The notes below the pieces were generated by a model. It saw nothing but the letters and a program-made list of their open reading frames with translations. It did not search any database and was not told where the DNA came from. Below, piece by piece: positions 16,509-38,029 of a stretch of DNA of 64,000 nucleotides. Position numbers and translations under genes: made by a program. Source of the stretch: Anaerohalosphaeraceae bacterium (GTDB taxonomy: Bacteria; Planctomycetota; Phycisphaerae; Sedimentisphaerales; Anaerohalosphaeraceae); NCBI GenBank assembly GCA_050309605.1, contig JBNRMN010000033.1, forward strand, positions 1 to 64,000. The letters run 5' to 3'. How positions within the stretch are numbered: position 1 is the first letter of the stretch; every line of letters begins with the position of its first letter.

Positions 16509-16739
16509 CGCAGCGCAACGGCGCGGCGCAATAGCGCGGCCGCGCAAGCGGCCCGATGGGGGATGTAACGCCGTGGGTGTCGCAATCCGGCCGCTTGCGC
16601 GGCTCGGCTGTTGTATGGTAACGCAGCGCAACGGCGCGGCGCAATAGCGCGGCCGCGCAAGCGGCCCGATCAGCGATGCGGATGCGTCCGGCGTTGTTCG
16701 AGTTGTGGTATTATCCGGCTTACTCGCGCGGCTCGGCTG
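16509..16739. repeat. Tandem REPIN-like element (two units, each an inverted pair of GC-rich REP-like arms)
   Basis: Identical 49-mer at 16509-16557 and 16622-16670; arm gccgcgcaagcggcccgat pairs with atccggccgcttgcgcggc (16585-16603); homologue at 31269-31440. Confidence 0.8.
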
Positions 16740-25854: not shown

Positions 25855-28800
25855 ATGCGAAGCTCCTTTCAAAATGAGACGAGAGGTGTTTTTCTGTGTC
25901 TGCTGTGCCTTTTGCTGATGGTCAGCGCAGCACCGAGTATGACGATTATTCTGGTCGCCACCTTGCCCGAACAAGAGGAGGCGTATATCGAGTTTCTGGA
26001 AGAGGTCTTTGGGCCGGAGACGGCGATCACCGCCGGCACTTATACCGAGCTGGACGGCAACGCCCAGATGCGTGCGGAGCTGGAAGCGGCGGACTTGATT
26101 GTCATTGTGCGGCGTACGACAAGCGGCAATTATGTTAACGGCACCGAGATTGAAGACTGGAACAGCCTGAGTACGCCGATCTTGTGCCACAGTGCTTATC
26201 TGACCCGTCAGAACCGATGGAACTGGATGGCCGGCGAACGTGCGGCTGAAGAGCTGACGCATATTCGCGTCGCTGATCCGGACGACCCCGTCTTTGAGGG
26301 GATGGACGTTCAGATGGGCGACGACATTCAGGTGTTTACTTTTCCCACGCCGATTGATGTTCAGGACGATGCCGGCAACGGCAGGACAGCGGCCGCTGCG
26401 CCGTCCACAGGGCGTGTGTTCATCAGCCGCTGGAGCGATACGGATGTGGTTTATCACGACGGCTCGGCCTATAAGCCCGGCGGGCCGCGTTTGTTTTTCG
26501 GGCTGTATGAATTTGATTCGCTGGTGCGTTTGACAGAGCAGGGTCGGATGCTGCTCAGGAATGCGCTGTTGTCATTGGTGCCGCCTTATAAGGGTCAGGT
26601 TGCGTATTCAGGGGCGGGTCTGTGGGTTCAGCACAGGCCGGCTCGCGCCGCAACGTTCAGTGTGGTACTCAATGAGCCGCCCTCAGCGCCGGTTCAGGTC
26701 GAGGCGGCGCCCGCAGTACAGGGCGACCGGCTTTGGCTTGACGGCGCGGCCGGGCCGGCAGAATCGGTGATGCTTGAGTTTTTGCCGTCAAATTGGGATG
26801 TTCCTCAGCCGCTGACCGTTCATGCCGCCGGCGGCGCAGGTCAGATCGACCGCGTAACGGCTGAGATACGATTTGAGCTGCACAGCACCGACCCATTGTT
26901 TAACGGTCCTTTGATTATGCCCCTGGAGGTTTCGGTTTTTGACGCCGCATCGAATGCCTGTCCGCCGACAGACTTAAACGGCGACTGCCGGGTGGATATC
27001 AATGACCTGCTGCTGGTTGCGTCCGAATGGCTTTCATTGCCGGTGCAGTCCGCGTTCATCGACGACAGTCAGGCCGTGAACTATCATCATTTGGCGGCCC
27101 TGTCCGAAGACTGGCTGGAACAGTCCGGGCCGGTGATCATAAGTGAATTCATGGCCTCCAACAGCGATACACTGGTCGATGGCGACGGCCAGGCGTCTGA
27201 CTGGATTGAATTGTATAATATGACCTCTGTTCCCATCGATCTGGGAGGGTGGTACCTGACCGACAAGGCCGATGACCTGACGCAATGGCAATTTCCCGCC
27301 GGCGTCGTCATTGACCCCTACGACTATTATCTTCTCTTTGCCTCGGCCGCAGATGACGCCCTTTATCCCTCCATCGACGGCGAGGGGTTTTTGCATACCA
27401 ATTTTGCGTTGAGCAAAGAAGGCGAGTATCTGGCCCTGGTTGCGCCGGACGGGCAAACGGTTGTCTGCGAATATGCGCCGCAGTTTCCGCCCCAGATACG
27501 GGATATGGCCTATGGCCTGGCTCAGATGCAGCCGGTGTATTTCGCCGAGGCGACGCCGGGGCTTCCCAACAGTCTTGAGATGTATGAAGGGATTGTCGCC
27601 GAACCGATTTTTTCGCATACACGCGGCGCTTACGAGACGCCGTTTGAAGTGTCTATCACCTGCCAGACGGAAGGGGCCAATGTGCATTACACCCTGGACG
27701 GAACAGCGCCGACGCCAACCAGCGCGGTCTATACCGCCCCGCTGACAATCAGCAGCACCGCCTGTTTGCGGGCGGCGGCATTCAAAGACGGGTGGTATCC
27801 CAGCGCTGTGGCGACGCAGACCTATGTGTTCTTTGCCGATGTTCCGTTCCAGTCGGCGCCGGACGACTATCCGACGTCCTGGAGCGGCTATCCGGCGCAT
27901 TATGCGATGACGGAACAAGTCTATGCCGACCCGACCTATGCCGACCGAATGACCGACGCGCTGGCGGCGCTGCCGGTCGTGTCCATTGTAACCGATAAGG
28001 ATCATCTGTTCGACGCGGCTACGGGCATTTATATGAATCCCATCCAGCGGACGGTTCTTTGGGAGCGTCCGGTATCGGTGGAGTTTTTTGACCCGTCCGG
28101 CCAAGAGACAGGATTTCAGGTCGATTGCGGCCTGCGTATTCAGGGCGGGGCCAGTCGGCAGCCGGCCAATTCGCCGAAGCATTCGTTTCGGCTTTTGTTT
28201 AAGCGAATTTACGGGCAGGGCAAATTGGATTATCCGCTGTTCGGCCAGGATGCCGCGGCGTCATTTGACACGCTCGTGCTCCGCGCCAACTACAACAATT
28301 CCTGGTATCATTGGGATCCGGCGCAGCGGCTTGCGACTCAGTATCTGCGGGATCAATGGGCGCGCGATACCCAACGGGCCATGGGGCAGGTTTCTTCGCA
28401 TGGCCGCTTTGTGCATTTGTACCTCAACGGATTGTACTGGGGCCTGTACAACATCAGTGAACGTCCCGATGCGTCCTTTTCGGCCGCTTATTTCGACGGG
28501 GATAAATCCGAATGGGATGCCTTGAAACATGGCGGGATTGTCACCGACGGTGATGCGGTGCGATGGACTCAGGCTCAGGCGATTGCCGAAGCCGGCGTCA
28601 GCGACAGCGCAGGCTACGCGGCGTTATCGGAATATGTTGATATCCCCAATCTGATCGATTATATGATTATCAATTTTTATGGAGGCAATCAAGACTGGGG
28701 TGCCAACAACTGGCGGGCGACGGCCAAGCGTGAGCCGGGATACGGTTTTCGATTTTTCTGCTGGGATACCGAACGTACCCTCGAAGATCCGCTTGGCCAT

Positions 28801-30069
28801 AATGTGACCGGCGTCAATCACCACAACAGCCCGGCCCGATTTTATGCAAAGCTGCGTGAGAATCCGGAATTTCGTATGCAGTTTGCCGATCATGCGCATC
28901 GATGGTTGTTTAACGGCGGCGTCCTGACGCCGCAGGCCTGCATCGACCGATGGATGAATCGTGCCGCACAGATCGATACGGCCGTGATTGCCGAATCGGC
29001 GCGATGGGGGATTTACCGTCGGGATATCCATGTGCGCGGCTCGGCGGTACTTTATACGCGGGATGAGCACTGGCTGGCCGAGCAGCAGCGGCTGCTGAAT
29101 GAGTATTTTCCGATTCGCTCCGGCGTGGTGATTGAACAATTCAAAGACGCCGGTCTGTATCCGACGACCGAGGCGCCGGTATGCTATATTAACGGCGTGT
29201 ATCAGCATGGCGGCGAAGTCTCCGTTGGCGACGCTCTGTCGCTGCTGAATCCAAACGCCTCGGGCACAATCTATTATACAACCGACGGCTCCGATCCGCG
29301 GCGGCCCGGCGGCGGCCTGAATTCTTTGGCGGTTGCTTATACAGGCCCGATTCACATCACGGAACCTTTACGGATCGCGTCGCGTATTTGGAGAAACGGC
29401 GTTTGGAGTGCTCTGAATGAGGCGACGTACACGCCGGGTCCGGTATCCCTGATGTATTACTGGTGTTTTACGGACGACCTGCCAAACAATACGCCGCTTG
29501 AAAGCGTGGAAGCGATATTCAGCGCCGCCGGTCAGGGACGGCTCCAGTTCCACTCCGCGATGGAAGGGTATCCGTTTGACCCCGACCATGAAAATTGGAG
29601 AAAAGCATCGATGGAACGCCGTAATCAGCCCACGTCGCTGAACTACCGTCCGGAAGGCAATGAAAACAGACTCTACGATGCCGACTGGATGCGCGGTCTG
29701 CAAGTTCGGCAGCCCTTCGCGCTGAACGGCTCAGAAAATACAATGATTGTTCATCTGCCTGCGACCGGATACCGGAACGTGTTGTTCAGCTTCGCTGTGA
29801 TGGATGAAGGCGCCGCAGAGAAGCTGGTGGTGGATTATTCTGTTGCTTCCGGCGACCCGATCTGGCAGACGACCGGGTTGAGTGCATCTGAAATTGAGCT
29901 AAAAGAGGCATATCAACTCTGTGAGATCGATTTTTCACAAATACCGGCAGTGAACAACAACTCTGATTTCAAGATACGGATCCGTTTTCAGGTCAGCGAC
30001 GGCTCTGCCGATGCGGGTAATCGGGTTACGTTTAACAACATTGCGCTTGAAGGATTGGCCGCAGAATGA
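25855..30069 (+). CDS. Large secreted protein with lamin-tail domain, chitobiase/FN3-like domains and CotH kinase-like domain
   Basis: IISEFMASN..DWIELYN..LGGWYLTD (LTD); HYTLDG and YYTTDGSDP; WERP, LYLNGLYWGLY, DWGANNW, WDTE (CotH). Confidence 0.85.
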   Translation: MRSSFQNETRGVFLCLLCLLLMVSAAPSMTIILVATLPEQEEAYIEFLEEVFGPETAITAGTYTELDGNAQMRAELEAADLIVIVRRTTSGNYVNGTEIEDWNSLSTPILCHSAYLTRQNRWNWMAGERAAEELTHIRVADPDDPVFEGMDVQMGDDIQVFTFPTPIDVQDDAGNGRTAAAAPSTGRVFISRWSDTDVVYHDGSAYKPGGPRLFFGLYEFDSLVRLTEQGRMLLRNALLSLVPPYKGQVAYSGAGLWVQHRPARAATFSVVLNEPPSAPVQVEAAPAVQGDRLWLDGAAGPAESVMLEFLPSNWDVPQPLTVHAAGGAGQIDRVTAEIRFELHSTDPLFNGPLIMPLEVSVFDAASNACPPTDLNGDCRVDINDLLLVASEWLSLPVQSAFIDDSQAVNYHHLAALSEDWLEQSGPVIISEFMASNSDTLVDGDGQASDWIELYNMTSVPIDLGGWYLTDKADDLTQWQFPAGVVIDPYDYYLLFASAADDALYPSIDGEGFLHTNFALSKEGEYLALVAPDGQTVVCEYAPQFPPQIRDMAYGLAQMQPVYFAEATPGLPNSLEMYEGIVAEPIFSHTRGAYETPFEVSITCQTEGANVHYTLDGTAPTPTSAVYTAPLTISSTACLRAAAFKDGWYPSAVATQTYVFFADVPFQSAPDDYPTSWSGYPAHYAMTEQVYADPTYADRMTDALAALPVVSIVTDKDHLFDAATGIYMNPIQRTVLWERPVSVEFFDPSGQETGFQVDCGLRIQGGASRQPANSPKHSFRLLFKRIYGQGKLDYPLFGQDAAASFDTLVLRANYNNSWYHWDPAQRLATQYLRDQWARDTQRAMGQVSSHGRFVHLYLNGLYWGLYNISERPDASFSAAYFDGDKSEWDALKHGGIVTDGDAVRWTQAQAIAEAGVSDSAGYAALSEYVDIPNLIDYMIINFYGGNQDWGANNWRATAKREPGYGFRFFCWDTERTLEDPLGHNVTGVNHHNSPARFYAKLRENPEFRMQFADHAHRWLFNGGVLTPQACIDRWMNRAAQIDTAVIAESARWGIYRRDIHVRGSAVLYTRDEHWLAEQQRLLNEYFPIRSGVVIEQFKDAGLYPTTEAPVCYINGVYQHGGEVSVGDALSLLNPNASGTIYYTTDGSDPRRPGGGLNSLAVAYTGPIHITEPLRIASRIWRNGVWSALNEATYTPGPVSLMYYWCFTDDLPNNTPLESVEAIFSAAGQGRLQFHSAMEGYPFDPDHENWRKASMERRNQPTSLNYRPEGNENRLYDADWMRGLQVRQPFALNGSENTMIVHLPATGYRNVLFSFAVMDEGAAEKLVVDYSVASGDPIWQTTGLSASEIELKEAYQLCEIDFSQIPAVNNNSDFKIRIRFQVSDGSADAGNRVTFNNIALEGLAAE

Positions 30070-30193
30070 ATCCGGCAATTCGTTGTTGCGGCATCGAAAC
30101 GGCAAGACAATCCTTTGCGTTTTGGGTGTAAGATCCGCCTGTCCGACCCGCCGCAGACGGCTTTGGCCTGTGTTGTTTTGCTCAATGAGGTGA

Positions 30194-31237
30194 TTATAGT
30201 GCGTGCTGCTTCACGGCCGGCGGCAGGGTCAGGGCGGCCTGTTGCGGCTCGGGCACACCGCAGCGGGCAAAGGCGCTGTCAAGAATCGCCTTGATCAGGT
30301 CGGCATACGTCATGCCCTGCTGCATGGCGATCATCGGCAAATCCGAGTGCGTCGGGTGCAGTCCGGCCAGCGGATTGATTTCGATGAAGCAGGCTCGCCC
30401 TGCCGCGTCGCAGCGAATATCCACCCGTCCGCCGTCGCGGCATTCGAGCACGCGATAGGCGGCCAGCGCCAGCGCCTCCACTTCGGCCTTTAACGGCCTG
30501 TCCTCTCGGATGGGGTGATACGTAATCTGTGTTTCGCATTCCTCCTTGTTCACAAACGAATAAATCGCCGGCTGATCCTTTCGCCGCAGCTCGATTTCCA
30601 TCGTACCGATGACCCGCGCCGCCTGTGCCGTACCAACGATGCCGACGGTAAACTCTCGTCCCGGCAGAAACTGCTCCACCAGTACCGGCTGATGATACCG
30701 CCAAAGCAAGTCCATACACACGCGCTTTAATTGTACCGGATCGTCAATCTTGGATTGTTGGTCGATGCCTTTTCCCGTGCCCTCGGCCAGCGGTTTGGCA
30801 AACAGCGGAAACCGCAGCGTTATGTTGTCAATCTCCGCTTCGGTTTGCACGACCACAAAGGCCGGTGTCGGCAAGCCCGCCTGGGCGATCCAGCGTTTGG
30901 CTACGGCCTTATCGAGCGTGGCCGCACAGACCAGCGGATCGGAAAACGTGTAGGCCTGGCCGTACAATTCAAGCAGCGCCGGTGCCTGGGCCTCGCGGCA
31001 GCGTCCGCCCAGCCCTTCGGCGATATTGAAGACCATGTCCCACCGATCGCCGGCGACCAGCCGCTCGGCCAGTCGTTTGGCGTTGCCGATGCGTTCGACG
31101 CGATAGCCCAGCGAGACGATGGTGTGTTCCAGGGCGTCGATGGTCTGTTCGGAGTCAAATTCCGCGGCTTGTTCCTCGCTGAATCCGGCGGCAAGGTAAT
31201 CGCTGCGAAGATCGTACACCAATCCAATGTGCTGCAT
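30194..31237 (-). CDS. D-Ala-D-Ala-ligase-like ATP-grasp enzyme
   Basis: VFNIAEG, LDKAVAK, FAKPLAEGTGKGI, LVEQFLPGREFTV, RVDIR, FIEINPLAG; AAGGA RBS. Confidence 0.85.
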   Translation of the reverse strand: MQHIGLVYDLRSDYLAAGFSEEQAAEFDSEQTIDALEHTIVSLGYRVERIGNAKRLAERLVAGDRWDMVFNIAEGLGGRCREAQAPALLELYGQAYTFSDPLVCAATLDKAVAKRWIAQAGLPTPAFVVVQTEAEIDNITLRFPLFAKPLAEGTGKGIDQQSKIDDPVQLKRVCMDLLWRYHQPVLVEQFLPGREFTVGIVGTAQAARVIGTMEIELRRKDQPAIYSFVNKEECETQITYHPIREDRPLKAEVEALALAAYRVLECRDGGRVDIRCDAAGRACFIEINPLAGLHPTHSDLPMIAMQQGMTYADLIKAILDSAFARCGVPEPQQAALTLPPAVKQHAL

Positions 31238-31268
31238 TGTATTTTTCCTTTCTTGTGGTTTATCCCAA

Positions 31269-31440
31269 CAGCCGAGCGGCGCTATTGTGCCGCGCCATTG
31301 CGTCATCGTACACCAGCCAAGCGGCGCAAGTGAGCCGGATAATACTACGCTCGAAAAGCGTTTGGCGTATCCGCATCGCTTATCGGGCCGCTCGCGCGGC
31401 CGCGCTGTTGTGCCGCGCTATTGTCTCGTGTCATTGCGCT
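31269..31440 (-). repeat. Diverged copy of the REPIN-like element at 16509-16739
   Basis: Reverse complement contains gcgcggccgcgcgagcggcccgataagcgatgcggat...gtattatccggctcacttgcgccgcttggctg, aligning with 16646-16739. Confidence 0.75.
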
Positions 31441-31441
31441 G

Positions 31442-33217
31442 TCACTCTTTTAGGACGTTGAGGTTTTCGTTTTTTTTCTTTGTTGCCGGTTTCAATGTCT
31501 CGGCGAACCCGCTAAACAGCGCCGTCGCACCCGTGCGCAGATTGCGCAGGCTGTAACCGCCTTCCTGCACGACCAGCGTCGGCAGATTCAAACCACCGAT
31601 AGCGCGGCCGATGTGTCTTTCCATTTGCCCGTTGAGGCCGAACGATCCGGTCGGGTCGCCTTTCATAATGTCAAATCCCACACACAGCACCAGAAACATC
31701 GGCGAAAATTTCCGCACACACGCCAGGGCCTTGTCCAGCGCCGCGGCGTACTCGGTCGGCCCGGCGTTTTCCGGCAGCGGATAGTTATGATTAAATCCCT
31801 TGCCTTCGCCGTCGCCTGTTTCGTCGGCAAACCCTGAAAAATAAGGATAGGCATAATTCGGATGTCCGTGAATCGACAGTGTCAGTACATCGCGGCGCGT
31901 GTAAAAAATATCCTGCGCTCCATTGCCGTGATGAAAGTCGATATCCAGAATCGCCACGGTTCCATGTCGGCTTAAAAACTGGGCGGCGATGGCGGCGTTA
32001 TTGAAATAGCAAAAACCGCCAAAGACCCGCCGCTCGGCGTGATGGCCCGGCGGCCGGCACAGCGCGTAGGCCAGGCGGCGTCCGCGCAGCACCTGTTCGG
32101 CGGCCGTCAGGGCCACGTCCACCGCCGCCTTGGCCGCATCAAAGGCGTTGCGATCCAGCGGGGTGAAGGTATCGATACAGTAATACCCCGCCCGAACCGC
32201 CAGGTCTTTGGGGCGTCGTTCGGGACGTCGAATCGGAAACACATACGGATACACCGGCCGTTTGCCGTGCAGTTTCTGGCAGACTGCTTTGAGATAATTG
32301 ACAAAATCCGTATCATGCACAGCGGCGATGTATTCCTGGCCGAAGTGCTTTACGCCGACCGCCTCAAACAGTCCCGTCGCTTCCAGCCCCTGACGAATCA
32401 CGCCCACCCGCGCCGGCCGTTCCACATAGCCGCGTTCGTGAACGTGATGAACCTGATGGGCGTCGCAACTGACCATCACAAACGCTTTTTCAAGCCGTTG
32501 GCTTTTATGATGGGCCGTCGCCGGCGTTTCGCTTTTGACATATTTCGGCGGTCGCAGCCGCACCGGATCGTCAATGACCGATTCGACGACGCGCTCAATA
32601 TAATCCGGCGAGACCAGATGACTGTATTTCTTGGTCAGGATCGTTCGCATGGCCGCTCGACATTGCGATCGGCTCAGCGGCGCATCACGATCCAGCCCGT
32701 CGTACAACAGATACGGCGCCGGCGACTCATCGATGGGCGTTTCATATTCGGTGCCGATAATCGGACGGGCGCCGTAACTTTCATAAAAGCGAAGACGCCG
32801 CTGATTTTCTTTGAGCAGGACCGGATCGCGGACGACCTTCGGATCATCCGGCAGGGCCTCCAGGTACAACCCGAGCGCCCCGGCCTGCCTGAGATAGTCG
32901 CGTGTGGCCTCATACAGTGCACTGCCGGCGCCGCCGCCGCGAATGTCCCGACGGACCGCCATAAAATCGAGCAGTCCGCTTCGAATCGTCGGAAAATACA
33001 GGGCCAGCGAAAATCCCGTTACATGTCCCAGCGAGGTTTCCGAGACCAGAAGTCCCGTTGTGTAACCGTACTGGATGGGATTGTCCAGCAGGCTGGGGAT
33101 TTTCTCGGCATAGTCGGCCACTGCCGCGAAATTCTGACGAAAGATCTCCTGCACCTGTGCGATGCGTTCCTTTTCAATCGGCAGTAAATGGCGATAGATG
33201 CGAACAATGCGAATCAT
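31442..33217 (-). CDS. Fusion of a GNAT acetyltransferase and a histone-deacetylase-family (acetylpolyamine amidohydrolase-like) domain
   Basis: N-term LDFMAV..RGGGAGSALY..RFYESYG; C-term ERPAR, RPPGHHA, GGFCYFNN, DIDFHHGNG, GFD..GDP, QEGGY. Confidence 0.85.
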   Translation of the reverse strand: MIRIVRIYRHLLPIEKERIAQVQEIFRQNFAAVADYAEKIPSLLDNPIQYGYTTGLLVSETSLGHVTGFSLALYFPTIRSGLLDFMAVRRDIRGGGAGSALYEATRDYLRQAGALGLYLEALPDDPKVVRDPVLLKENQRRLRFYESYGARPIIGTEYETPIDESPAPYLLYDGLDRDAPLSRSQCRAAMRTILTKKYSHLVSPDYIERVVESVIDDPVRLRPPKYVKSETPATAHHKSQRLEKAFVMVSCDAHQVHHVHERGYVERPARVGVIRQGLEATGLFEAVGVKHFGQEYIAAVHDTDFVNYLKAVCQKLHGKRPVYPYVFPIRRPERRPKDLAVRAGYYCIDTFTPLDRNAFDAAKAAVDVALTAAEQVLRGRRLAYALCRPPGHHAERRVFGGFCYFNNAAIAAQFLSRHGTVAILDIDFHHGNGAQDIFYTRRDVLTLSIHGHPNYAYPYFSGFADETGDGEGKGFNHNYPLPENAGPTEYAAALDKALACVRKFSPMFLVLCVGFDIMKGDPTGSFGLNGQMERHIGRAIGGLNLPTLVVQEGGYSLRNLRTGATALFSGFAETLKPATKKKNENLNVLKE

Positions 33218-33258
33218 CGTGCCCTCGTTTGGCTTCGGGTGGCCTTCAAAATCGGCAT

Positions 33259-34653
33259 TTATATATCGAACGGTAAACCGGTTCGTCCGCACGCGCCGTT
33301 GCGCGGGGCGATTTTTTCACGGCGTTTGATGCGGCCGTTGCGCGCCGGCAGTATGACGGATGCCTGACCGGCGGCCAATTCCCACACGCCCGGTTCGCCG
33401 GCGGGGGCGGCTGCGGACGGCTCGGCTTCAGCGCCGGGTTCGGGGTAATTGACCAGCAAGCCCTCATAATTGCGCAGCACCGTATGCGTACAACTGGACG
33501 AGACGACATACTGGGGCAATATCGGAATTTTGCCGCCGCCGTGCGGGGCATCGACCACGAACAGCGGAATCGCAATCCCGCTGACCCGACCGCGCAGATA
33601 TTCCATAATCTCCAACCCTTTGCGGATGGAGGTGCGGAAATGTTCCACGCCGCGCACCAGGTCGCATTGATACAGATAATACGGTCGTACGCGCATTTGA
33701 ATCAGGCCGCGGCATAACTGCTCAATGATCGGCGGGCTGTCGTTGACGCCGCGAAGCAATACAGTCTGATTGCCCAGCGGAATGCCCGCATCGGCCAGCG
33801 CGGCGCAGGCGGCTTTGGCCTGTTCGCTTAACTCGTTGGGATGATTAAAGTGCGTATTGATCCACAGCGGATGGTATTTTTTCAGCATGGCCGTCAGTGT
33901 CGGGGTAATCCGCATCGGCAGCACCACCGGCACGCGCGTCCCGATGCGAATGATCTGCACCGTCGGCACCGACCGCAAGGCACTGAGGACGGCCTCGAGA
34001 CCGGCGTCCGACATTGTCAGCGGGTCGCCGCCGGAGACAATCACATCGGAAATTTCCGGATGAGCGGTCAGGTATTCGACCACCTGCTGCAATCGACGCG
34101 ATGAAATCGAGCTTTCGCGTGTGCCGGCGATGCGCTTGCGCGTGCAGTGGCGGCAATACATCGAACACATCGTCGTGGCGATCAGCAGCGCCCGGTCGCG
34201 GTAACGGTGCACCAGCCCCGGCACAGGCATATCGTCGTGTTCTTCCAGCGGGTCGTCGCTCAGCGAGGGCGGATCGAACAACTCCTGCACATTCGGCACA
34301 CTCATCCGAAAGACCGGATCGGACATATCCGCCCGCTGAATCAGCGTCGCATAATACGGGGTAATCGCCATCGGATAGCGGGCGATGACCCTGGCCAATT
34401 CCGCTGAGGCGTTCAGCGACGGCACATAGGCGGCCAATTGCTCCAGCGTGCGGATGCGATGGCGCACCTGCCAGCGCCAATCGTTCCACGGGTGGGTGTG
34501 CAAGGTGTGTTGGTTCTCCCCCGACGGGCCGAATGTGCCCAGACGGCGGGTTGATTTGTCAGAGGGCGCACACGCGGCGACCCTCAACGTACTTGGAGGC
34601 TCGGAGGCCTGTTCTTCGGCGACGCCGTTCTCAACCCGTTCAAATTGCTGCAT
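33259..34653 (-). CDS. kamA: Lysine 2,3-aminomutase (KamA family radical SAM/PLP enzyme)
   Basis: HRYRDR, CSMYCRHCTR, SGGDPL, HFNHP, YYLYQCD, VDAPHGGGKIP; GAAAGGA RBS. Confidence 0.9.
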   Translation of the reverse strand: MQQFERVENGVAEEQASEPPSTLRVAACAPSDKSTRRLGTFGPSGENQHTLHTHPWNDWRWQVRHRIRTLEQLAAYVPSLNASAELARVIARYPMAITPYYATLIQRADMSDPVFRMSVPNVQELFDPPSLSDDPLEEHDDMPVPGLVHRYRDRALLIATTMCSMYCRHCTRKRIAGTRESSISSRRLQQVVEYLTAHPEISDVIVSGGDPLTMSDAGLEAVLSALRSVPTVQIIRIGTRVPVVLPMRITPTLTAMLKKYHPLWINTHFNHPNELSEQAKAACAALADAGIPLGNQTVLLRGVNDSPPIIEQLCRGLIQMRVRPYYLYQCDLVRGVEHFRTSIRKGLEIMEYLRGRVSGIAIPLFVVDAPHGGGKIPILPQYVVSSSCTHTVLRNYEGLLVNYPEPGAEAEPSAAAPAGEPGVWELAAGQASVILPARNGRIKRREKIAPRNGACGRTGLPFDI

Positions 34654-34718
34654 GGTCAGCATTCCTTTCAAAATGAAAAGAGGGTGTCCTTTCGTATCGT
34701 TTATTATTTTGGTCTGTC

Positions 34719-35396
34719 TTACTGCATTAAAAACATCGTCAGGCTTTTGACAAAACTCTGTCGCAGCGGCTTGATACTGTCGGCGATATCCTGCGGCTCC
34801 ATTCCGATCATGGCGAAGGAAAAGAATCCAAACACAAATCCGGCCACCGCACACGCCAGCCGGCGAATTCGCAGCCAATCCAGCTTCTTTTCGCCCAGAA
34901 ACGGCGTCAACTGACGTTCAATCTCTTCCAGATACCGCGAGAACGGCGCCTCGATCCGGTCGGTGGCCTGACGTTCGAGCTTGAGCAGCAAACGCCCCTG
35001 AAACAGCAGGATAAATTCATCCTGATGATGTCGAAAAAACGCATAATGGGCATTCAAAAAATGCTCCAGCACCTCTTGCAGCGTCGTGGTCGGCTGCGGG
35101 TCACATTCGCGCAGCGTCCCGATTAAATGGTCAATGGCCTGCTCAACCAGTACACCGGCAATATCGTATTTGTCGGTAAAATGCCGATAAAACGTCCCTT
35201 TTCCAAGATCCGCCCGTTCGGTAATCATATCAATTGTGGACGCATCGACGCCGCATTCGCTGAAGATCTCCAGTGCGGCGGTCAGCAGCTTCTTTCGGGT
35301 CTTTGCGGCCCGCTTTTCAGTACGACTGGGCGGGATTGCCGGATTATTGACCGGCACATCGGGACGTTCAATTCGCTTTTGGCCAGTGGTTTCCAT
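34719..35396 (-). CDS. TetR/AcrR-family transcriptional regulator
   Basis: LLTAALEIF..IDMITERADLGKGTFYRHFTDK. Confidence 0.92.
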   Translation of the reverse strand: METTGQKRIERPDVPVNNPAIPPSRTEKRAAKTRKKLLTAALEIFSECGVDASTIDMITERADLGKGTFYRHFTDKYDIAGVLVEQAIDHLIGTLRECDPQPTTTLQEVLEHFLNAHYAFFRHHQDEFILLFQGRLLLKLERQATDRIEAPFSRYLEEIERQLTPFLGEKKLDWLRIRRLACAVAGFVFGFFSFAMIGMEPQDIADSIKPLRQSFVKSLTMFLMQ

Positions 35397-35399
35397 AAC

Positions 35400-35431
35400 T
35401 GACTATTTAGTCATTTATGACCAATTAGTCA
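35400..35431. promoter_or_regulatory. Tandem palindromic operators, probably for the adjacent TetR
   Basis: TGACTATTTAGTCA (35400-35413) and TGACCAATTAGTCA (35418-35431) immediately upstream of the tetR ATG. Confidence 0.7.
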
Positions 35432-35515
35432 ATATATTTTCGGCAAATTTTTTCAAAAGTTCACAATAATTTTCAATTTTTGACGAATTTGTTGTGTTTT
35501 CGAGAAAATCCCGGC

Positions 35516-36514
35516 CTACCACTGTCCGGGCGAGAGGCTGTCTGACAGCGGGGCGTTCCACCAGTCCGGATCGCGGAGATAGTGTTTCATCCACATCGCC
35601 GCGTTGACGCCGTCGGCTACTGCGGTAACCAGCTGCATCGCCGCACCGATGCGGCAGTCGCCGGCTACGAACACGCCGGGCACGTTGGTACGCAAATAGG
35701 CCGTGTCGCACTTGATGAAGCCGGCCTCCGTTAAGTCGATAAACCCCTTCAGGAAATCGGTGTTGGGGACCATCCCCACAAAGATGAACACCCCGTCGCA
35801 GGAGATCGTTTCGGTTTGGTCGGCTTTGACGTTTTTGATGACGGCTCGTTCGACGTGGTCTTTGCCCTCGATGGCGGTCAGCGTCGCGTCCAGACGCAGC
35901 TCGATGTTGGAGCCTTCGGCGTTGACCTTTTGCATCAATTCTTCGACCAGGACCTGTGTGGCGCGAAATTGCTGACGCCGATGCACCATAATGACCTTTT
36001 TGGCGTATTTAGCCAGGTGCAGGGTGTCCTCGACGGCTGTATTGCCGCCGCCGACTGAGACGACCGTTTTGTCCTTGAAAAACGGCGCATCGCAGGTGCC
36101 GCAGTAGCTCACGCCCGCGCCGGCCTGGCGAAACTCTTGCTCTCCGGGCACACCCAAATGGCGGTATGAGCTGCCGGGGGCCAGGATCACCACCCGTCCG
36201 AGATAGATTTCATCGTCCGTGCGGACTTCGATGCGTCCGTCGTCGCGCCGCGTCAGGCCGGAAACCTCGGCGCTGGTTTTGACCTCGCCGCCGAAGGCCT
36301 GGACCTGTTCGAGCATCTTCATCACCAAATCCGGCCCGCCGATCTTGGCATAGCCGGGGTAATTCTCGATGCGGTCGGTGGTGTTGATTTGTCCGCCGGG
36401 GTAAAACTTTTCCAGCAGAATGGTTTTGGCTCGGTCGCGTGCGGCGTACAATCCGCCGCCCAGCCCGGCCGGGCCGGCCCCGACGATGATGCAGTCATAT
36501 TCTTTGTGTGCCAT
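35516..36514 (-). CDS. trxB: Thioredoxin reductase
   Basis: GAGPAG, IENYPG, GVSYCGTCD, GGGNTA, HRR, GVFVAGD. Confidence 0.9.
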   Translation of the reverse strand: MAHKEYDCIIVGAGPAGLGGGLYAARDRAKTILLEKFYPGGQINTTDRIENYPGYAKIGGPDLVMKMLEQVQAFGGEVKTSAEVSGLTRRDDGRIEVRTDDEIYLGRVVILAPGSSYRHLGVPGEQEFRQAGAGVSYCGTCDAPFFKDKTVVSVGGGNTAVEDTLHLAKYAKKVIMVHRRQQFRATQVLVEELMQKVNAEGSNIELRLDATLTAIEGKDHVERAVIKNVKADQTETISCDGVFIFVGMVPNTDFLKGFIDLTEAGFIKCDTAYLRTNVPGVFVAGDCRIGAAMQLVTAVADGVNAAMWMKHYLRDPDWWNAPLSDSLSPGQW

Positions 36515-36561
36515 TGGTGTCCCTTTCGGTTCATTCGCAAAGGCGTTGCGCCCGTGGTCGA

Positions 36562-37890
36562 TTATTGGAAATTTCGTCGCGATGACTGTTCGTAACGTTC
36601 CCCGAAAGTGTTTTTCAACTGTTCGGCCTCGGCCTGTTCCCACAGCCGGGCGGGCTGCTGGGGCACTTGTTCGAAGCGGCCGATATACCGGCCCTGCCGG
36701 TCAAAAATCAATTCATCAAACGACCCGTCCATATGCAGATAGTCAGCCCGGACGACCGTAATTTGATTCGAGGCGCGGACATGACTTTGTTCCGTATCGA
36801 TAACCGCCAGCCGTGTCGGCACGACAAATCCACTGCCGGTCAATACATCAATGATGATTTCAGCGGTGTCGGTGTGCACCACACCGGCGACAAAGGCCGG
36901 CAGCAGCGGCTCAGGCAGCATCATGGCAGTGCGCTGAAGCGCGCGCTCGCGCTCGGTGTTGGTCGTCAGCGTAATCCGCTGTCGGGTACTGGCTCGCAGT
37001 TCAGCCAGCCTCGGCCGTCGGGAACGCGGCGGCCAAGTCTGTGTCGTCCAGGTGAATGTATCCTCTTCGGCGTCCAGCCACAAATCCGACTCGCTGTATG
37101 CGCCGCCAGGCTCCAGATACCGCGTGGTGATGCGATAGTGTCCGTCGGTCTGCTCGTCGTCGTGGTGCGAAAAGAAGCGGTGCTCGATAAAACCCAGCGG
37201 CCTGTCGGCGGTGTCTTTGATCATCAGCCGCATTTCCTGCGGGGCGCTGGCATCGAACAGGTCGGCGGTGTGCCGGTCAAAGGCCTCGTTAAATCGTCCA
37301 ACGGCCTGGGCGCCCGCCTGCAAAGCTGCCGCGCGTTCATACTGCACGCCGGCTGCCAGAGTCCGAAAGACGTTTTCGGCGAACCATCCGTCGCTGCGAT
37401 AGGAGATCAGCAGTTCCAGTTGCCGTCCGAAGTCCAGCGGGGCCACCCCGACCAGATAATCCTGGCCTGTCGGGTCCGGCGTATAGATGCGTCCTGCGAC
37501 CATCGCAATCGGCCCTTCGATCCGGCCGAGCGGAATCAGTCTGCCGCCGGCGCTGTCGGCGCGCGACTGGAGAAGCTGCTCCGGATCGGTCGGTTCATCG
37601 CACAGGGCATAGCGCCAGCGGATATGCATGACCGGACGACCGCCGATGCGCATCAGACTCAACAGGACGAAGGCGTTGTCGCTTTCGAAGCGCCAGCCGC
37701 CGGCCGATTGCCATTGGTCGCCCTGCGGAATCGCCGCCGCCAGGCCGGCGCCCGGCAGCGAGACCGGGTCGCTCAGCGCCACTCGACCCCGCGCCTGAAC
37801 CACCAGCAGCGACAGCCCCAGCCCCAGCGCAAAAATCGCCAGCAGTACCACCTCCACCGCCGAATATCGTTTTAAGACGTCTGTGTCCAT
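36562..37890 (-). CDS. Hypothetical membrane-anchored protein
   Basis: Long ORF with host-like codon usage and one N-terminal TM; same strand as flanking genes. Confidence 0.7.
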   Translation of the reverse strand: MDTDVLKRYSAVEVVLLAIFALGLGLSLLVVQARGRVALSDPVSLPGAGLAAAIPQGDQWQSAGGWRFESDNAFVLLSLMRIGGRPVMHIRWRYALCDEPTDPEQLLQSRADSAGGRLIPLGRIEGPIAMVAGRIYTPDPTGQDYLVGVAPLDFGRQLELLISYRSDGWFAENVFRTLAAGVQYERAAALQAGAQAVGRFNEAFDRHTADLFDASAPQEMRLMIKDTADRPLGFIEHRFFSHHDDEQTDGHYRITTRYLEPGGAYSESDLWLDAEEDTFTWTTQTWPPRSRRPRLAELRASTRQRITLTTNTERERALQRTAMMLPEPLLPAFVAGVVHTDTAEIIIDVLTGSGFVVPTRLAVIDTEQSHVRASNQITVVRADYLHMDGSFDELIFDRQGRYIGRFEQVPQQPARLWEQAEAEQLKNTFGERYEQSSRRNFQ

Positions 37891-38029
37891 TCTCTCACCT
37901 TGGCCGCACAAAACCGACGGCCGGTCAATTTGTCAGAAAAATCCATACTCATACCTGTGAAACAATCAACTCATATAAGCCGACTGAATCAATGGCATCT
38001 ACTGTTTCGAAATAAGTTCAACGCTCAAA

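Follow-up and report, generated by a model that had tools for sequence, protein, structure and literature searches.

The question raised by the window (the whole 64,000-nucleotide stretch analysed here, positions 1 to 64,000 of contig JBNRMN010000033.1 in assembly GCA_050309605.1 of an Anaerohalosphaeraceae bacterium) is what compound is made by four co-oriented genes that occupy positions 30194-35431 on its minus strand, namely tetR, kamA, a gene for an acetyltransferase-deacetylase fusion and a gene for an ATP-grasp ligase resembling D-alanine-D-alanine ligase (Ddl), here termed LIG1. Based on the comparative analysis presented below, we favour, with somewhat better than even confidence, the view that these genes form one half, the one under TetR control, of a widespread and uncharacterised cassette for the ligation and acetylation of beta-lysine, the gene set as a whole probably converting lysine into a small acetylated beta-lysine compound. 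The initial annotation, which had proposed a beta-lysine pathway composed of the four genes, proved sound with regard to the gene identities, the lysine-type KamA and the non-Ddl character of the ligase; the unit is wider than was then envisaged, as it takes in a further Ddl-like ligase, LIG2, together with a small GNAT acetyltransferase, and the fusion is an accessory part of it.

LIG1 orthologues were identified in at least 593 species genomes (593 of 600 pattern-matched stretches were confirmed), counts from draft genomes being lower bounds, and these orthologues are 51-87% identical across phyla. Their carriers are hundreds of bacterial species of more than ten phyla, most of them anaerobic; judged by record titles and tree labels, the 80 best-scoring loci stem from Planctomycetota, Verrucomicrobiota and Lentisphaerota together with Bacteroidota, Spirochaetota, Thermodesulfobacteriota, Pseudomonadota, Myxococcota, Thermoanaerobaculia, Eisenbacteria, Krumholzibacteriia and Goldiibacteriota. 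Among the species in culture, Desulfosarcina variabilis (L090) carries the complete cassette. The 80 best-scoring LIG1 loci, which are phylogenetically non-independent, were surveyed using tblastn and open reading frame (ORF) maps. In 71 of these 80 loci a KamA-family gene lies directly upstream of LIG1 and on the same strand, two of the nine exceptions falling at the end of a contig. LIG2 follows downstream in 68 loci, only four of those lacking it having at least 9.7 kb of sequence available, and a small GNAT gene is present in 60. A GNAT domain fused to an acetylpolyamine amidohydrolase (APAH)-like deacetylase, hereafter GNAT::APAH, was found in 21 loci, being located upstream of LIG1 in six (KamA precedes it in five of these, the sixth, L019, being cut at the contig start) and after LIG2 in 15, while 14 loci, all within the PVC clade of the KamA tree, carry a TetR homologue upstream of the cassette. 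When ORF translations were checked, in-frame fusions were recognised for LIG2::GNAT in 18 loci, for GNAT::APAH::GNAT in four and for KamA::LIG1 in one (L025). Apparent KamA::LIG1 fusions in L031 and L059 and an apparent LIG1::LIG2::GNAT fusion in L058 were rejected, as the upstream gene is in a different frame, and no LIG1::LIG2 fusion was seen among the 80 loci. The degree of gene clustering in this survey is far beyond chance, and the conserved core of the cassette is KamA, LIG1, LIG2 and the small GNAT. The survey of co-occurrence that the initial annotation had recommended was strongly positive. A full-text literature search, covering titles and the openings of abstracts, returned no published description of the KamA-LIG1-LIG2-GNAT gene set.

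Gene identities were assigned by comparing Pfam and NCBIfam profile scores with curated cut-offs. On this basis KamA (positions 33259-34653, minus strand; 464 aa) is identified as a lysine 2,3-aminomutase of the radical SAM and pyridoxal phosphate (PLP) type, with matches to LAM_C (86.3 bits) and Radical_SAM (44.3 bits) and a score of 318 bits on the subfamily model TIGR00238, well above the cut-off of 199.2. Its best model is that of AblA (TIGR03820), whose cut-off it narrowly missed (499.6 against 525.4), and it scored below the cut-off of the EpmB equivalog (252 against 369.3). Alignment to the lysine 2,3-aminomutase of Clostridium (PDB 2A5H; 458 bits) revealed that KamA retains the three cysteines of the CxxxCxxC motif (C125, C129 and C132 in 2A5H numbering), R134, D293 in the YQCD motif, D330 in the VDAPHGGGK motif and K337. 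We take K337 to be the lysine that holds PLP, R134 to bind the substrate carboxylate, and D293 and D330 to bind the epsilon-ammonium group; the two Asp residues, which the initial annotation had singled out as lysine-type, are thus corroborated by the alignment. All four of R134, D293, D330 and K337 are kept in every cassette KamA ORF that covers these positions. Of 69 aligned rows, 68 have Asp at both the D293 and the D330 position, and the one that does not is an unlinked paralogue from the same genome on C21. Homology, together with the retained substrate residues, strongly suggests that KamA makes beta-lysine from lysine. In a tree obtained by a quick search, with support assessed by SH-aLRT only, the KamA of the window falls in a well-supported clade of 23 cassette KamAs from the PVC group, which contains all 13 of the TetR-linked KamAs. 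The C21 paralogue (376 aa; L016:6897-8027, corresponding to C21:77896-79026) is the third KamA-family gene of this genome; it is below all equivalog cut-offs, carries Arg in place of D293, is gapped where D330 would be, and is probably not a lysine aminomutase. It adjoins genes for an HpiC1-like protein and a prepilin-type N-methylation protein.

LIG1 (positions 30194-31237, minus strand; 347 aa; Dala_Dala_lig_C, 97.5 bits) represents, as judged from its profile scores and residues, a family distinct from D-Ala-D-Ala ligase. It missed every Ddl cut-off (best 156.4 against 243), gave no Pfam match to Dala_Dala_lig_N (PF01820) and shows no profile alignment to Ddl over residues 1-65; the canonical ddl of the genome is located on C66 in a murC-murB-ddl cluster, scores 314.1 against the same cut-off with PF01820 present, and its product is 26% identical to LIG1. 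The suspicion voiced in the initial annotation that this is not a plain Ddl was therefore well founded. An AlphaFold2 model of LIG1 (pLDDT 85.6) exhibits the full Ddl fold, and its top structural matches are all Ddl or VanA-type enzymes, with TM scores of 0.7-0.8 and 17-27% identity. The ATP-grasp set K110, K148, E188, R271, D273, E286 and N288, made up of the lysines that bind ATP, the Mg-binding Asp/Glu/Asn and the transition-state Arg, is kept in 81 of 81 LIG1 sequences, and the equivalent catalytic residues of LIG2 are invariant in 30 sequences; by homology, these retained residues support the notion that both proteins are catalytically competent ATP-grasp amide ligases. The omega-loop Lys-Tyr of Ddl and the Ser-Leu of its second-substrate (D-Ala2) site are both kept in the Ddl of this genome and correspond in LIG1 to K231-E232 and S298-D299, such that Tyr216 and Leu282 of Ddl align with Glu232 and Asp299. 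The latter is Asp in 81 of 81 sequences and the former is Glu in 70 of 81, and E26, D28, E74 and E82 are further invariant acidic residues of LIG1. Because of E232, D299 and these four residues, the LIG1 pocket may have been remodelled for a cationic substrate such as beta-lysine. The Ser of the Ddl HS(L)LP stretch, which presumably binds the carboxylate of the second substrate, is kept in LIG1. Many members of the LIG1 family are labelled 'D-alanine-D-alanine ligase' in database annotations. The genome encodes a fourth Ddl-like ATP-grasp paralogue (339 aa; L013:6678-7697, corresponding to C67:44677-45696), which is not Ddl, LIG1 or LIG2 and which lies behind genes for an ATP:guanido phosphotransferase and a Peptidase_Mx-like protein.

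LIG2 is absent downstream of LIG1 in the window. When 57 LIG2 sequences were compared with the genome, the best match of all 57 was C74:3340-4368, and each of 27 stand-alone small GNATs matched only C74:2732-3220, directly downstream of LIG2. All four core genes are consequently present in orthologous form, KamA and LIG1 in the window and LIG2 and the small GNAT at C74:2693-4368, and the cassette is non-contiguous. The same split is observed in a congener (G238), in which LIG1 is on C1 and LIG2 on C15, and the closest locus, L017, also has no LIG2 downstream; in two other genera of the family LIG1 and LIG2 are adjacent. Between the congeners LIG1 is 86% and LIG2 74% identical and, as both halves are well conserved, both would appear to be still in use. 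On C74 (L014:2693-6694) the LIG2/GNAT pair is located directly downstream of the shikimate kinase gene aroK, whose stop overlaps the LIG2 start, and also downstream of a gene that combines a Na+/H+ exchanger with a PTS EIIA domain in one protein.

The fusion (positions 31442-33217, minus strand; 591 aa) consists of an N-terminal GNAT domain of approximately 230 aa (Acetyltransf_1, 22.3 bits) and a C-terminal deacetylase of the histone deacetylase fold that resembles APAH (Hist_deacetyl, 243 bits against a cut-off of 27.9). The nearest solved relatives of the C-terminal domain are the APAHs 9gkz, 6phr, 3men and 3q9b (E 1.5e-73 to 9.3e-62); it aligns across the whole APAH chain, and its HH, D-x-H, D and GGY motifs, which we take to be the APAH catalytic motifs with Asp/His/Asp as zinc ligands and the GGY tyrosine, are identical to those of 9gkz; homology thus supports a competent zinc deacetylase of APAH type. 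The N-domain was modelled with a pLDDT of 91.8, and a fold search with this model returned generic GNAT matches only (GCN5/PCAF, AAC(6') and PaiA), with no clue as to substrate; neither the fusion nor its N-domain matched the AblB model TIGR03827 or any other NCBIfam model. Both the N-domain and its extension of approximately 70 aa are conserved across 25 aligned sequences, a profile of the N-domain recovered 175 cluster representatives at E <=1e-30, and among the 150 matches listed the full-length fusions measure about 570-600 aa, or 738-762 aa where an extra GNAT is present. The fusion is accessory to the cassette and not tied to it and, since it also occurs alone, a reversible acetylation of beta-lysine can at present only be suggested. 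The safest statement is that its substrate would be a polyamine-like acetylated amine, which need not be beta-lysine. A role for the APAH half in recycling the N-epsilon-acetyl-beta-lysine that AblA and AblB produce was also considered and is unsupported, as 12 of 14 Planctomycetota genomes with a full-length fusion have no AblB match.

The first gene of the unit, tetR (positions 34719-35396, minus strand; 225 aa), encodes a protein with an N-terminal helix-turn-helix of the TetR_N family (PF00440, 44.9 bits) for which no NCBIfam model exceeded its cut-off. Two 14-nt palindromes of the TGAC-N6-GTCA class, on the plus strand TGACTATTTAGTCA at 35400-35413 and TGACCAATTAGTCA at 35418-35431, abut the tetR ATG, have their centres 18 nt apart and overlap a TTGACT box. 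The strict pattern TGAC[TC]A[AT][AT]T[AG]GTCA has just two matches in the 3.4-Mb genome, both of them at tetR, in agreement with the tandem operators of the initial annotation, and these positions (35400-35431) are accordingly annotated as predicted TetR operators. Among the 13 related cassettes that have a callable tetR ORF, the same palindrome class precedes tetR in eight by the strict pattern, three more (L028, L030 and L070) have near-variant palindromes as judged by eye, and several, such as L017 and L027, have tandem palindromes with the same 18-nt spacing. The protein accordingly shows both features expected of a TetR-family repressor with a palindromic operator, namely the N-terminal helix-turn-helix and a palindrome that recurs at the tetR promoter of related cassettes, and there is good comparative support for the prediction that the palindromes form an autoregulatory TetR operator. 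A relative of this operator with two mismatches, TGACTTAACGGTCA, is present at the marR/ablA junction of another contig (L015:7909-7922, corresponding to C73:19908-19921), immediately before the canonical ablA ORF. The genome contains 21 near-matches of this kind, and the one at ablA could reflect a MarR site, cross-talk between the two beta-lysine systems, or coincidence.

The four gene identities and their shared orientation were borne out by the ORF calls and profile scores. The true starts of kamA, the fusion and LIG1 are shorter than the longest ORFs: kamA begins at an ATG preceded by the Shine-Dalgarno sequence GAAAGGA, the fusion at MIRIV, a start common to 25 of 25 aligned homologues and with GAGGG in front as Shine-Dalgarno sequence, and LIG1 at MQHIGL, where a 347-aa database protein matches with 100% identity and coverage. 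The intergenic gaps are 65 nt between tetR and kamA, 41 nt between kamA and the fusion, and 204 nt between the fusion and LIG1, and the description of the genes as closely spaced in the initial annotation consequently applies to the first two gaps and only in part to the third. This last spacer (31238-31441) holds one copy, of approximately 125-150 bp, of a dispersed repeat with 94 further blastn matches on 23 contigs, 66 of them of at least 100 bp; the repeat often forms tandem arrays (e.g. C92:48253-48852 and C1:40374-40954), often at contig ends, and a further copy is located in the window at 16521-16739. Metagenome contigs break at the repeat, where depth is raised 7- to 10-fold, and a variant with a 1-base insertion was noted behind position 31349. 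Folding of the spacer RNA was not significant (z -0.8), Rfam yielded no match in 29900-35800, and a minus-strand scan for promoters and terminators identified none in the three gaps between the four genes, its counts not exceeding those of shuffled sequences. As the 3' neighbour of LIG1 is a convergent gene, for a 1404-aa CotH/LTD protein, the unit ends at LIG1.

If the cassette operates as these data suggest, KamA would convert L-lysine to beta-lysine and LIG1 would use ATP to form an amide between beta-lysine and another small compound that offers a carboxylate or an amine. That LIG1 may act on free beta-lysine is suggested because of its adjacency to KamA, the single KamA::LIG1 fusion and the acidic changes in the pocket. 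LIG2 and the small GNAT would then form a further amide bond and cap the molecule by N-acetylation, and it is because of the 18 LIG2::GNAT fusions that this may be regarded as a joint next step. GNAT::APAH would function as an accessory acetyl switch that acts on a free amine, either of beta-lysine itself or of a product with a polyamine-like tail; on account of its four fusions with the small GNAT, it may toggle acetyl on the free amine of an intermediate or of the product. TetR, bound to the two palindromes over its own promoter, would release the operon upon build-up of a small molecule, for which the product and an intermediate are candidates. The product would most likely be a small N-acetylated beta-lysine peptide or amide that is cytoplasmic, for example a solute or a polyamine-like compound. 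More speculatively, and we regard this as rather doubtful in its full extent, the cassette may specify a hitherto unseen family of small N-acetylated beta-lysine peptides that many anaerobes employ in the cytoplasm as an adjustable solute or in place of polyamines, with GNAT::APAH switching between neutral acetylated and cationic free-amine forms and with the split separating the regulation of the TetR half (supply, first ligation and switch) from that of the half which completes the product (LIG2 and the GNAT that caps it).

AblA and AblB make N-epsilon-acetyl-beta-lysine in methanogens and some bacteria, the KamA/YodP pair of B. subtilis being an example, and it might be argued that the locus is a variant of this osmolyte pathway in which the fusion GNAT acetylates beta-lysine and the APAH domain removes the acetyl group once the solute has become dispensable, the ligase being a side activity or unrelated. 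The AblA model as the closest match of the window KamA would fit such a scheme, as would a fusion that combines an APAH-type deacetylase with a GNAT whose R-x-x-G-x-G-type loop, a GNAT motif, is intact, and the epsilon-acetamido tail of the osmolyte is like that of acetylcadaverine, an APAH substrate. We nevertheless consider the proposal unlikely. The fusion N-domain was not recognised by the AblB model, and the genome already possesses a canonical MarR-ablA-symporter-ablB operon on C73 (ablA 773.4 against 525.4; ablB 350.1 against 205.1). Among 401 Planctomycetota genomes AblB is present in 18 and LIG1 (E <=1e-70) in 46, and the overlap of two genomes is about what chance predicts (approximately two), indicating that AblB and the cassette are statistically unlinked. 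The fusion is moreover missing in 59 of the 80 loci, where LIG1, LIG2 and the small GNAT persist. LIG1, for its part, is conserved more strongly than any other gene of the set, as would hardly be expected of a side activity. The initial annotation had remarked that known beta-lysine partners are not adjacent, and the genome data concur: the ablA/ablB operon is on a separate contig, no lysine-fermentation gene lies within 10 kb of the locus, and no genome match was obtained to KamD of lysine 5,6-aminomutase (PF09043), a weak blank given that its control also matched nowhere, or to the 3-keto-5-aminohexanoate cleavage enzyme Kce (PF05853), for which the control matched in one genome.

It is similarly unlikely, in our estimation, that the genes make a secreted bioactive compound containing beta-lysine, antibiotic-like or a signal, with acetylation and deacetylation providing self-protection or pro-drug chemistry. 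Beta-lysine occurs in several antibiotics, a GNAT combined with a deacetylase follows a known pro-drug logic, and TetR regulators often reside beside export or antibiotic genes. The genes that flank the cassette vary over the 80 loci, with sigma-54 activators in seven and MFS transporters in four, and the recurrence of the latter family might be taken as a trace of export. Four loci do not amount to a conserved transporter, and none was found among the locus genes of the window by profile scan. Furthermore, the breadth of LIG1 across species and phyla, and its level of identity, are unlike the patchy and fast-evolving distribution of secondary-metabolite clusters.

A third proposal, which we hold to be very unlikely, is that LIG1 and LIG2 modify a protein or peptide by adding beta-lysine or other residues to a side chain or C-terminus, in the manner of RimK or tubulin-tyrosine ligase (TTL), with the GNAT and deacetylase editing the mark. 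ATP-grasp enzymes do include protein-modifying ligases, LIG2 sequences show weak TTL and RimK Pfam matches, and beta-lysine is attached to elongation factor P in other bacteria; in the present genome no EpmA exceeded its cut-off, the best genX match being a 510-aa frame with 247.6 against 286.9. Modification of this type is difficult to reconcile with the lack of any conserved candidate substrate protein alongside the cassette in the 80 loci, with a LIG1 fold whose nearest solved relatives are dipeptide-forming Ddl enzymes, with the retained HS(L)LP Ser and with a deacetylase that groups with small-molecule APAHs and not with protein deacetylases. Finally, that the genes are chance neighbours and the ligase an ordinary second D-Ala-D-Ala ligase, as the database labels and the 204-nt gap might suggest, is scarcely credible in the face of Ddl scores far below cut-off, a canonical ddl in the cell-wall cluster, the KamA-LIG1 adjacency across many phyla and the in-frame KamA::LIG1 fusion.

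A number of observations weigh against our reading of the locus as half of a beta-lysine ligase and acetylation cassette. It is orthology that suggests LIG1 may work with the unlinked LIG2, and the operator motif is absent upstream of the LIG2/small-GNAT locus on C74, which gives no sign of co-regulation between the two halves. E232 is variable in the LIG1 family, the residue roles invoked for Ddl, lysine aminomutase and APAH come from the literature on those enzymes, and transcription might be interrupted in the repeat-bearing gap ahead of LIG1. The fusion, too, has a life outside the cassette: in the 14 of 401 Planctomycetota genomes that encode it in full length, it lies beside LIG1 in seven and apart from it in seven, four of the latter being genomes with LIG1 elsewhere and three genomes without a LIG1 match. 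Six stand-alone fusion genes have no cassette gene within approximately 9 kb and no neighbours in common; the contig of one of the six (L101) ends just past the fusion. Five genomes were searched for KamA, four with a stand-alone fusion and G276 with a partial fusion match, and in two of them (G319, 93% complete, and G276, 90% complete) no KamA-family match was obtained.

As regards the surroundings of the locus, the gene that converges on LIG1 (25855-30069) encodes Lamin-tail, CHB_HEX_C/Fn3-associated and CotH kinase domains. Directly upstream of tetR (35516-37911) are a thioredoxin-reductase-like gene, whose 324.6 bits are slightly below the TrxB cut-off of 343.45, and a gene for a 449-aa protein without a Pfam match. 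L017, the nearest relative, is alone in keeping both genes in this order (89% and 64% identity, respectively). Near-identical DNA (mostly 95-100%) to positions 30100-35600 is present in contigs of the metagenome runs X3 and X12 (both labelled soil), X9 (biogas fermenter) and X18 (compost), and X3 spans the entire interval.

A module that has been kept in hundreds of species of more than ten phyla, with one enzyme at 51-87% identity, should make something of physiological importance. Identification of the product would add a new class of beta-amino-acid metabolite to the physiology of anaerobes, assign functions to two large families mislabelled 'D-alanine--D-alanine ligase' and provide a substrate for a widespread acetyltransferase-deacetylase fusion. 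The genome represents a natural experiment in which a split cassette coexists with a canonical N-epsilon-acetyl-beta-lysine operon, and the predicted TetR/operator pair could provide a ready biosensor for the ligand of the cassette. New for this window are the split, the conservation of the operators, the changes at D299 and E232 and the repeat inside the operon, as well as the coexistence of the cassette with, and its statistical independence from, AblAB.

Four known systems invite comparison. The AblA/AblB pathway shares with the cassette a lysine 2,3-aminomutase of the same subfamily in which the lysine-binding Asp residues are kept, and the acetylation by a GNAT of an amine derived from beta-lysine; it differs in that the window locus has no AblB-type GNAT, in that the cassette possesses two Ddl-fold ligases and, here, an APAH-type deacetylase, and in that true ablA and ablB genes are located elsewhere in the genome and do not co-vary with the cassette in the 401 Planctomycetota genomes. 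With Ddl and VanA/B/C, LIG1 has in common the three-domain ATP-grasp fold, the Mg/ATP and transition-state residues and the HS(L)LP Ser, but it is linked to KamA rather than to mur genes. The Ngg/AsnO pathway for N-acetylglutaminylglutamine amide (NAGGN) assembles a small N-acetylated dipeptide solute by means of Ngg, in which a GNAT is fused to an ATP-grasp ligase; the likeness is one of design logic and is echoed by the LIG2::GNAT fusions of 18 of the 80 loci, whereas the ligases of the cassette are Ddl-like and two in number, the beta-amino acid comes from a radical SAM mutase and there is no amidotransferase. The C-terminal domain of the fusion, lastly, resembles bacterial APAHs over the full chain with the catalytic motifs kept, while differing from them in the fused N-terminal GNAT with its extension of approximately 70 aa and in its frequent location inside a beta-lysine cassette.

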